Shown here one piece after another: positions 25,563 to 27,212 of a stretch of DNA of 64,000 bases. The DNA lies in NCBI GenBank assembly GCA_042584585.1, contig JBHOSQ010000002.1, positions 32,001 to 96,000 on the forward strand, in the 5' to 3' direction. Origin of the DNA: an archaeon (GTDB lineage: Archaea > B1Sed10-29 > WALL01). The number at the start of each line of letters is the position of its first letter. Position 1 is the stretch's first letter. A program made the translations under genes and the position numbers. Below the pieces are notes generated by a model, which was given only the letters and a program-made list of their open reading frames with translations, was not told the DNA's origin and did no database searches.

Positions 25563-27212
25563 ATGAGGTTAGTAGTTGACGAGTGCAGCCACTGCAACGC
25601 ATGCGTAGAGACATGCCCGCACAAGGCAAACTTTGAGTGCAGGCAATGCCTTGAGCCGGAATGCGTGAAGGCCTGCCCGCACGGGGCTTTTTACGAGGCA
25701 GCCACCGGCGTGTGGGGCATTGACGAAGAAAAGTGTGATGGGTGCGGGCTCTGTGCCATGACGTGCCCGTACAACGCAATTTATGTGGACGGGTACGCCC
25801 GGAAATGCGACTTGTGCGGCGGGGACCCGAAGTGCGCGAAGGTGTGTGTGAAAGGATTGCGGCTCGATGCCACGGAAGAAGAAAATGAAGAGACGCGGAG
25901 GATACTCGGCTGGGAAAAAATGGGTGGGGAGTATGACACTGGAGTCTATTTCCCAAGCTGCCAGGAAGCGCGATTGGTTGAGGGGGTGGTCAAGGCATTC
26001 CGCGAGGCAGCCAAGCAGGAGGATACAGACGTAGAAGAAGTATTCGAGGAATACTGTGAGGCGCAGGGGCTGGTTTTGGACGAAGGGCAGCACGAGGACT
26101 TGCTGCGGCTCATGAAGTACGAGGTGCACGGCTTTTCTGTGCTCGAGCCACTGCTGGCGGACGAGTCGCTCGAGGAGATTACTGTGAATGGGATAGGGGA
26201 GCCGATAAGAGTATACCGCCGCGGCGTCGGTTGGCTCGAAGCAGACGTCGCTTTCCTCGACGCGAAAAAAGTCGTTGGCGTTATCAACCGGATTGCGCGG
26301 TCGCTGGGGAGGAGGATTACTCTGCAGAAGCCGAGGATAAACGCGTGCCTGCCGAACGGGTCGCGACTGCACGCCGCGATTCCGCCGGTGACGAAGCAGC
26401 CCTGCCTGACGATAAGGAAGTTCACCGAAAAGCCACTGTCGCCGAGGCAGTTGATTGACAACGAGACAATCAGCGCGGAAGCCATGGCGTTTTTGTGGAT
26501 GGCCATGCAGTGCGACCTGAATATCTTGGTGGCCGGGTCGACCGGGTCGGGCAAGACGACGACGCTGAATTGCCTGAGCGCGTTTATCCCGCTGACCGAG
26601 CGCGTGATCATCGTGGAAGAGACACCGGAAATAAGCATCCCCCACGAGCACAGCGTGCGGCTTACCGTGAACCACGAGCTAGGGATAAAAATGGGTGATT
26701 TGGTGAGGGACACGCTGAGGATGAGGCCGGACAGGATTGTTGTGGGCGAGGTGCGGAGTGCTGGCGAGGCAAAGGCATTGATGGACACCATGCTCGCCGG
26801 GCAGGGAAAGGGAAGCGTGGCGACTTTTCATGCGCTGAGCACCCGGGAGGCAATCAACCGCCTGAAGGCGCTGGGAATAAGCGACCATGACCTGCCCACC
26901 ATTGACTTGATTGTCGTGCAGAAGCGGTGGGACCGGTACGACCCGGAGGAAAAGCGGACGGAAGAATTGCGGAGGGTCATGGAAATAAGCGAAGTGACGG
27001 CCAACGGGGCAAAGCCCTTGTTCGACTACGACACGGCAAAGGGAAAGCTAGTAAGGGTTGGGAGTGGCCAGGTGGGGAAAAAGATTATGAAGGCGTTTTC
27101 GCTGGACGAGCTGGACGGGGAATGGGCGAAGCGCGAGAAAGCGCTTACGGATTCTTCCGAAGACTTCACAGAGGCGGTGAGGCAGGTAAATGAAACTGTT
27201 TTCGGGGCTTGA
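25563..27212 (+). CDS. TadA/CpaF (VirB11-family) pilus assembly ATPase with fused N-terminal 4x[4Fe-4S] ferredoxin domain
   Basis: Four Cys motifs: CSHCNACVETCP, CRQCLEPECVKACP, CDGCGLCAMTCP, CDLCGGDPKCAKVC. Then LTIRKF, Walker A GSTGSGKTT, Asp box VEETPE, LRMRPDRIVVGEVR and TFHA. Confidence 0.92.
   Translation: MRLVVDECSHCNACVETCPHKANFECRQCLEPECVKACPHGAFYEAATGVWGIDEEKCDGCGLCAMTCPYNAIYVDGYARKCDLCGGDPKCAKVCVKGLRLDATEEENEETRRILGWEKMGGEYDTGVYFPSCQEARLVEGVVKAFREAAKQEDTDVEEVFEEYCEAQGLVLDEGQHEDLLRLMKYEVHGFSVLEPLLADESLEEITVNGIGEPIRVYRRGVGWLEADVAFLDAKKVVGVINRIARSLGRRITLQKPRINACLPNGSRLHAAIPPVTKQPCLTIRKFTEKPLSPRQLIDNETISAEAMAFLWMAMQCDLNILVAGSTGSGKTTTLNCLSAFIPLTERVIIVEETPEISIPHEHSVRLTVNHELGIKMGDLVRDTLRMRPDRIVVGEVRSAGEAKALMDTMLAGQGKGSVATFHALSTREAINRLKALGISDHDLPTIDLIVVQKRWDRYDPEEKRTEELRRVMEISEVTANGAKPLFDYDTAKGKLVRVGSGQVGKKIMKAFSLDELDGEWAKREKALTDSSEDFTEAVRQVNETVFGA

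Follow-up and report, generated by a model that had tools for sequence, protein, structure and literature searches.

An archaeal type IV pilus-like assembly ATPase with an N-terminal module predicted to bind iron-sulfur clusters

Organization of the fused gene

The window analyzed here is a stretch of 64,000 nucleotides (positions 32,001 to 96,000 of contig JBHOSQ010000002.1, assembly GCA_042584585.1) from a DPANN archaeon, and all coordinates refer to this window unless otherwise stated. A single open reading frame (ORF) at 25563..27212 on the + strand encodes a protein of 549 amino acids (aa) in which a four-cluster ferredoxin domain precedes an ATPase of the FlaI/TadA/GspE type. Residues 1-100 (25563..25862, +) form the polyferredoxin domain, with four Cys motifs and a predicted content of 4 x [4Fe-4S]. 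They are followed by an acidic linker with a net charge of -6, which holds an LGW motif (residues 101-130; 25863..25952, +), and by the N-terminal and RecA-like C-terminal domains of the ATPase (residues 131-549; 25953..27212, +), with the Walker A motif at 325-332. The start of the gene is secure because the stop-to-stop frame comprises only 554 codons and because a purine-rich GGAGAGGGAG lies directly 5′ of the ATG.

Pfam analysis of the protein detected T2SSE (PF00437) at residues 191-465 with 131.3 bits (cut-off 24.9; E 4.6e-38), Fer4_11 at residues 25-98 with 33.8 bits (cut-off 26.2) and Fer4 with 43.8 bits (cut-off 21.1). A sequence search of the PDB returned no single chain matching both halves of the protein. 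The original prediction, made by a model from the letters of the window, had described 16 Cys in four motifs in frame with an intact ATPase; this was confirmed by translation, by the Pfam matches and by the invariance of the nucleotide-binding residues in relatives.

Conservation and distribution of the fusion

Dozens of independent assemblies, at 40-84% identity, share this in-frame architecture. The 120 nearest homologues were drawn from a collection of 5.8 billion proteins (40-83% identical, many on independent contigs); 15 or more N-terminal Cys are present in 101 of them, and the rest consist of ten with 12-13 Cys, four with 8-9 and five with 0-1. A cluster of 184 archaeal members in the ESM Atlas contains T2SSE in 100% and Fer4 in 83% of its members. 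For analysis of loci we used the best 80 of at least 288 relatives as species-representative loci. The module is carried by 20 of these 80 loci, or by 21 if L075 with its 10 Cys is included, and beside the 20 fused loci two more (L003 and L063) encode the module as an ORF of its own, immediately 5′ of the ATPase.

The phylum of the window comprises 31 species genomes. An orthologue at E <=1e-60 was present in 29 of them, and the Fe-S module alone was matched (E <=1e-6) in 21, with the match in the same open frame and directly upstream of the ATPase match in 19 of the 21. Direct reading identified a fused 12-Cys form in G001, G004, G005 and G006, a fused 8-Cys form in G024, the module as a separate ORF of 136 aa in G028, and no module in G009 and G010. 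The final tally for the 31 genomes was 24 fused, one split and two unfused; four could not be assigned. In the phylum that includes a Candidatus Iainarchaeum record the module was matched in 36 of 151 sampled genomes, 34 of these matches lying in frames of at least 440 aa (the frame was checked as an ATPase for G032 only). The corresponding figures for the phylum that includes a Candidatus Micrarchaeota record were five of 151 genomes and three frames, of 576-593 aa. In these two further DPANN phyla the fused form is probably present in about 34 and 3, respectively, of the 151 genomes sampled from each. The fusion is the rule in the window's phylum, frequent in the second phylum and rare in the third, which answers the question on its spread among DPANN genomes left by the original prediction.

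Such an ORF would also arise if an assembly chimera or a stop-loss artefact had brought a ferredoxin gene and an ATPase gene together. This explanation is contradicted by the in-frame fusion in dozens of independent assemblies and by the conserved LGW junction. The comparative data show the same fused frame across independent assemblies, 24 of the 31 phylum genomes included, and we therefore consider the chance of an artefact to be negligible. It is almost certain that the fusion is real and conserved and that the gene is a genuine, vertically conserved DPANN gene.

The iron-sulfur module

The four motifs as read from the translation are C8xxC11xxC14xxxC18P (I), C26xxC29x4C34xxxC38P (II), C58xxC61xxC64xxxC68P (III) and C82xxC85x5C91xxxC95 (IV). 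They account for the 16 Cys of residues 1-100, and one extra Cys at about residue 133 lies outside the domain. All 16 module Cys, as well as K81 and G116, are invariant in 47 selected homologues; these were picked out of 72 with four regular-expression motifs, a choice that favours Cys invariance. In the linker, G116 of the LGW motif is thus invariant and W117 is conserved at 90% or more.

An unselected tally of Cys was made on 131 N-termini with at least 8 Cys, taken from 194 non-redundant proteins. The full 16-Cys pattern was present in 88 of these 131 Fe-S N-termini, and a further 15 have 16 Cys with the first Cys of motif II shifted in the alignment. In six sequences the first three Cys of motif I and the fourth of motif IV are gone while the fourth Cys of motif I is kept. 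Three others have lost the first three Cys of motif II together with the fourth of motif III and have kept the fourth of motif II, and one sequence (L078) has lost two such quartets. In proteins of the DmsB/HycB/ferredoxin type each cluster takes three Cys ligands from one motif and its last ligand, the fourth Cys, from the partner motif (I with IV, II with III). The ten quartet losses therefore remove only whole ligand sets of single clusters, and this is the behaviour expected of real ligands. Conservation of the Cys, on which the original prediction depended, was thus found both as invariance in the selected relatives and as loss that mostly proceeds by cluster quartets.

A model of residues 1-126 obtained with AlphaFold2 (AF2) had a predicted local distance difference test score (pLDDT) of 82.7, and its fold was compared with known structures using VIA-align Z scores and Foldseek. 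The matches were 9mqx_E, an AorA-type subunit of tungsten aldehyde oxidoreductase (AOR) (Z 13.0, root mean square deviation 4.1, 117 residues aligned), the small subunit of WOR5, 6x6u_B (Z 11.6, root mean square deviation 2.2, 107 residues aligned, 36% identical), 7qv7_G of the hydrogen-dependent CO2 reductase (HDCR; Z 11.2), 8c0z_F of AOR (Z 10.3), ArrB (Z 9.5) and PsrB (Z 9.4). Two-cluster ferredoxins reached Z <=6.9, with the alignment confined to residues 22-77. Foldseek matched the module to 6x1o_B with E 5.9e-8, and sequence matches to the same four-cluster subunit families ranged from E 5.7e-14 to 1e-9. Based on the Cys pattern, profile and predicted fold, the module very probably binds Fe-S clusters in the canonical way. 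The DmsB/NrfC/CooF-like four-cluster domain on a Tad/FlaI-like ATPase that had been proposed for this gene is thus borne out by both sequence and fold. Assignment to the DmsB, NrfC or formate dehydrogenase beta subunit equivalogs was considered and rejected: the scores were 41.4 vs 214.1, 34.1 vs 377.6 and 39.6 vs 334.7 bits, respectively, and no catalytic or membrane partner subunit is encoded in the window or in 14 related loci.

The ATPase half

In the PDB sequence search residues ~130-549 matched Archaeoglobus fulgidus GspE (2oap) with E 2.5e-51, CpaF with E 5e-48 and FlaI with E 9e-41. An AF2 model had a pLDDT of 91.6 and a predicted template modelling score of 0.75, and Foldseek matched the ATPase to 2oap (E 1.2e-33), 4ii7 (E 1.5e-31) and 8rjf (E 1.5e-30). 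The model has the two-domain fold of these proteins, with an N-terminal and a RecA-like C-terminal domain. Residues G325, T327, S329, G330, K331, T332, E352, E353, R386-D390, E396 and H423 are invariant in the 47 relatives, and we take them to represent the Walker A motif, the acidic (Asp) box, Walker B and the His box.

Two more specific assignments were rejected. The archaellum FlaI equivalog (NCBIfam NF058587) scored 192.6 bits against a cut-off of 550, and the neighbouring genes include neither FlaH nor archaellin; the TadA/CpaF equivalog (TIGR03819) scored 190.7 bits against a cut-off of 373.15. As both scores lie under the NCBIfam cut-offs, the ATPase is neither a FlaI nor a TadA in the strict sense. 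It would be expected from its sequence to work like a TadA, yet it is no TadA equivalog.

Gain, loss and splitting of the module

Where the module is absent, the orthologous proteins start at the LGW motif or just short of it (for example 'MLGW...'), and the synteny DUF192-ATPase-TadB/C-PAC2 is kept. Since these proteins start at LGW and keep the operon, the module can be regarded as an optional add-on. A FastTree of the ATPase core with 198 rows needs 15 changes of module presence or absence, at least six of them forced by starred branches. When split and contig-edge rows were recoded the number fell to 11; in this recoding P0075 was treated by assumption, as the sister of L003. A 73-row IQ-TREE, which excludes six long or partial rows (L062, L063, L068, L070, L077 and L079), requires four presence/absence changes, of which at least two are forced. 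On the evidence of sequences and trees, the module is an optional N-terminal add-on that was lost or gained more than once. Its repeated loss from loci that kept the operon favours an accessory or regulatory function over an obligatory one.

The split form was found at L003:5992-7634 (= G028:C83), where an ORF of 125 to 136 aa contains all 16 Cys. The split lies at an A-run, and the ORF joins that of the ATPase through an ATGA stop/start overlap. P0075, which is 72% identical and located on another contig, starts at the same point as the L003 ATPase, although the stretch upstream of it is not visible. Because the two start at the same point, the split form of the L003 type is probably old and functional and not a sequencing error.

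The operon and neighbouring genes

The operon of the fused gene lies at the end of a long same-strand array, in which pilin-like ORFs at 360-2448 are followed by LamG giants of 3168 and 4101 aa. The second giant (12894..25199, +) is a surface protein with seven Laminin_G_3 stretches and a DUF2341 domain and lies directly upstream of a DUF192 (COG1430) gene at 25196..25501 (+; Pfam E 1.7e-17; the mechanical ORF starts at 25142). The ATG of the DUF192 gene and the stop codon of the giant adhesin gene share an ATGA (25196-25199), and by this arrangement of codons the 4101-aa LamG gene is predicted to be translationally coupled to DUF192. A DUF192 gene is located directly upstream of the ATPase in 40 of the 80 related loci, with or without the Fe-S module. 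The DUF192 protein encoded here has no signal peptide, its sole PDB sequence match is 3pjy with E 0.0098, and a literature search on DUF192 found nothing relevant. It is likely to be a partner of the motor and is unstudied.

Downstream, the two TadB/C genes noted in the original prediction were identified as T2SSF (PF00482) platform proteins. The ATPase gene and the TadB-like gene (27190..27930, +) have 23 nt in common, and the TadC-like gene (27927..28784, +) overlaps the TadB-like gene through an ATGA. They were detected in 71 and 67 of the 80 related loci, respectively, and in some relatives the two are merged into a single gene. No cofactor motifs were seen by eye in either platform protein. 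A conserved neighbour further downstream is a PAC2-family gene (29031..29792, +); genes of this proteasome-assembly-chaperone-like family follow the TadB/C genes in 38 of the 80 loci, across phyla. In the window the PAC2 gene is preceded by a gap of 247 nt with a TTTTTAAA box and is for this reason probably a separate transcript. Pfam, run on 14 fused loci, confirmed the DUF192, TadB, TadC and PAC2 families. No pilin gene was found inside the conserved operon here or in these 14 loci, and the window contains no tRNA or Rfam family.

The absence of an adjacent oxidoreductase, as reported in the original prediction, holds more widely: neither the neighbourhood in the window nor the 14 related loci contain a molybdo- or tungsto-oxidoreductase partner. 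A flavin-reductase-like gene that the prediction had missed lies two genes downstream (29836..30471, +). Such a gene is found near 9 of the 20 fused loci and near none of the unfused ones among the 80, all nine within one large clade. As co-occurrence limited to one clade may be synteny, we did not count the flavin reductase as a functional partner. In one clade DUF473 and the flavin-reductase-like gene come after PAC2.

Genomic context

The source genome is 1.02 Mb in size and 84% complete, and genome-wide negative results should be read against that completeness. It encodes five T2SSE ATPases above the Pfam cut-off, and the only Fer4_11 domain found in it is that of the fused protein. Two prepilin peptidase genes (Peptidase_A24) are located elsewhere in the genome, and pilin-like ORFs and giant adhesins lie in the same window as the fused gene. 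Two genes for 2-oxoacid:ferredoxin oxidoreductase (POR_N) and several small Fer4 proteins (ferredoxins) are encoded, and cytochrome bd oxidase was not found. Such a gene content suggests an anaerobe that maintains a pool of ferredoxin. This genome (G000) also gave no match to the SufB/D core (PF01458). The core was found in only 10 of the 31 phylum genomes and in six of the 11 high-quality ones, although all encode Fe-S proteins. The strongest SufB/D matches came from G009 and G010, the module-less genomes, an anecdote with n=2.

A number of other surface-related genes were observed around the fused gene. Three pilin-like ORFs with class III signal motifs of the KG type occupy the start of the window (360-2448, +), and a further T2SSE ATPase is located just upstream of it (G000:C2:29230-29901). 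Within ~50 kb there are three T4P-type (type IV pilus-type) ATPases, with giant surface proteins encoded between them. A second type IV pilus locus, complete by appearance, spans 36124-44729 (-) and 45919-48015 (+). It contains a T2SSE ATPase of 835 aa at 42222-44729, a polytopic protein of 724 aa at 40085-42259 that is FlaJ/TadC-platform-like by eye and has no Pfam match, five ORFs with class-III-signal-like N-termini (e.g. MQRGQAFDAF..., MDMKRGQAMVF...) and an ORF of 698 aa that begins MKNKRGFAVF. It is adjoined by an ORF of 1552 aa at 31412-36070 (-) with no Pfam match. The consecutive giant ORFs at 48065-55708, 55854-63398 and 63479-64000 (+) share a conserved N-terminus, ..KWY.L.D....KG.P......DPIE..G.PS.P...G, followed by a hydrophobic span and then by CarboxypepD_reg/SpaA-like domains. 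From this shared organization, the three look like a paralogous family of anchored surface proteins.

Discussion

Comparison with known systems

The sequence, fold and nucleotide-binding motifs of the ATPase half are shared with GspE (2OAP), FlaI (4II7/4IHQ) and CpaF/TadA (8RJF/8RKD/9E24), and the T2SSF platform is encoded next to the fused ATPase as in the paired TadB/TadC Tad and archaeal T4P-like systems. Unlike the fused protein, the solved GspE, FlaI and CpaF proteins have no Fe-S domain. The order of Cys motifs in the module is the same as in the WOR5 small subunit (6X6U_B), AorA-type (8C0Z/9MQX) and HycB-type (7QV7) subunits, PsrB (2VPW_B), FdnH, NarH and DmsB/NrfC. However, four-cluster oxidoreductase subunits are 150-500 residues long and the module is only ~100, and, in contrast to them, it is fused to a motor ATPase with no catalytic or membrane oxidoreductase partner nearby.

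Our literature search found no description of a Fe-S or ferredoxin domain on a T4P or secretion ATPase. Ferredoxin, 4Fe-4S, Fe-S, DPANN, DUF192 and PAC2 are all absent from the main text of the archaeal T4P census (PMC4858521), and the word 'ferredoxin' does not occur in the searched passages of PMC5498576. The databases already hold such proteins under double labels, for instance 'Flp pilus assembly CpaF family ATPase/Fe-S-cluster-containing hydrogenase component 2'.

Two precedents for added N-terminal domains can be considered. ABCE1/Rli1, universal in archaea, is an ABC ATPase with an N-terminal ferredoxin-like domain of 2x[4Fe-4S], and it illustrates that an ATPase can carry an Fe-S module for a purpose outside metabolism. 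It differs from the fused protein in having an ABC rather than a RecA/secretion fold and two clusters rather than four, and its domain is essential and is not known to be lost. In bacterial PilB, MshE and GspE the MshEN domain, which binds cyclic di-GMP, provides a regulatory input before the N-terminal domain of the T4P or type II secretion ATPase. The placement is that of the Fe-S module, but the ligand of MshEN is a nucleotide second messenger and not metal clusters, and the folds are unrelated.

Possible roles of the module

Sequence and fold show that the product of the fused gene is the assembly ATPase of a machine resembling type IV pili (Tad/Epd/FlaI-type), extended at its N-terminus by an additional module. 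This module would hold four low-potential clusters and hang on the acidic linker ahead of the conserved LGW start of the motor; by analogy with structures of FlaI, GspE and PilB, it might be positioned at the periphery of the hexamer's N-terminal-domain face. The account we favour, with a confidence slightly short of even, is that the module is a redox or oxygen input device to motor assembly or turnover. The clusters could be reduced by the ferredoxin pool of the cell and oxidised or destroyed by oxygen. The resulting change of charge or fold would alter hexamer assembly, platform docking or ATP turnover, and deployment of filaments and adhesins would then be limited to a suitable redox, energy or anoxic state. 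An accessory regulator fits best because the module is dispensable and because clusters are lost stepwise.

Several points weigh against an input device. Like the redox or oxygen gating, or electron flow into the appendage, put forward in the original prediction, regulation itself is something we infer, and no result bears on it directly. Single-purpose redox or oxygen sensors usually have one cluster, and a chain of four clusters is characteristic of electron wires. No position in the ATPase core is conserved at >=80% in fused forms and at <=30% in unfused ones, and only moderate differences were seen; the sequences thus give no indication that the motor has a dedicated docking surface. The pattern of Cys loss is also less regular than the quartets suggest: L023 and L026 have dropped the entire motif III rather than a canonical quartet, and some entries that seem to have 8 to 13 Cys are truncated gene calls, among them P0087, whose core is identical to that of the 16-Cys L011.

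A domain with a structural or mechanical function, serving as a compact rigid lever or docking knob on the motor without redox signalling, would account for the strict conservation of the Cys and for the very compact packing of four clusters into ~100 residues, and ABCE1/Rli1 may offer a precedent for a Fe-S domain N-terminal to an archaeal ATPase. We nevertheless think it rather unlikely. The module was cleanly and repeatedly removed while operon and motor were kept, so the motor works without it, and loss of one cluster at a time would be odd for a rigid lever. The electron-transfer alternative stays alive because of the four-cluster wire architecture and because the nearest folds are all those of electron-wire subunits. 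Here the module would exchange electrons with ferredoxin, the flavin-reductase-like protein or neighbouring subunits, and through six chains with 24 clusters per hexamer the flow of electrons would be linked to the appendage or to the hydrolysis of ATP. The HycB-type subunit of HDCR and AorA, which polymerise into conductive filaments, may be analogous, and the association of the flavin-reductase-like gene with fused loci (9 of 20 against none of the unfused) points in the same direction, but that association is confined to one clade and may be synteny. Neither this locus nor the 14 related ones have a catalytic oxidoreductase partner next to the ATPase, the TadB/C platform has no cofactor motifs by eye, and many orthologues have no module. 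In addition, one family (G001, G004, G005 and G006) has lost the motif-II cluster, which is internal to the chain in the FdnH-type order, and would thus contain a broken wire. Overall, a true electron-transfer module is improbable. Still a shade less probable is its most far-reaching form, a hexameric motor whose ring of up to 24 [4Fe-4S] clusters serves as an electron conduit or store under the membrane platform. If true, such a ring might couple electrons from ferredoxin or flavoproteins to ATP-driven filament or adhesin dynamics at the site of host contact; alternatively, ATP hydrolysis might gate electron transfer, as in nitrogenase-like ATPases. We know of no redox-active type IV filament machine in any organism.

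Whatever the role of the Fe-S module, the ATPase and the TadB/C core could also constitute a pilin-less, T4P-derived machine for secretion or anchoring of the giant adhesins encoded upstream. The conserved operon, as seen in the 14 related loci, has no pilin gene, the 4101-aa LamG protein appears translationally coupled to DUF192 in the window, and large surface proteins are also encoded upstream in L002, L054, L059 and L021. On the other hand, prepilin peptidases and pilin-like genes are encoded at other places in the window and genome, and the N-terminus of the giant protein is by eye an ordinary signal-peptide-like one. Archaeal ATPase/TadC loci without their own pilins are, moreover, already known from the main text of the T4P census (Makarova 2016, PMC4858521). 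With these points in mind we consider a dedicated secretion or anchoring machine unlikely.

Significance

Few prokaryotic machines have been studied as well as type IV filament motors, and to our knowledge none of the motors characterised so far has a metal-cluster domain. The core motor described here, present in several DPANN phyla, has a conserved module predicted to accommodate up to four Fe-S clusters. The natural four-, three-, two- and zero-cluster forms, together with one split form, constitute a ready set of variants for biochemistry. DPANN archaea need to touch a host physically, and they presumably do so by means of pili and giant adhesins. The fusion may tie the building of surface filaments to the redox state of the cell, and it would provide a testable handle on when these uncultivated symbionts build their contact structures, be it in response to redox state, oxygen or iron-sulfur supply.

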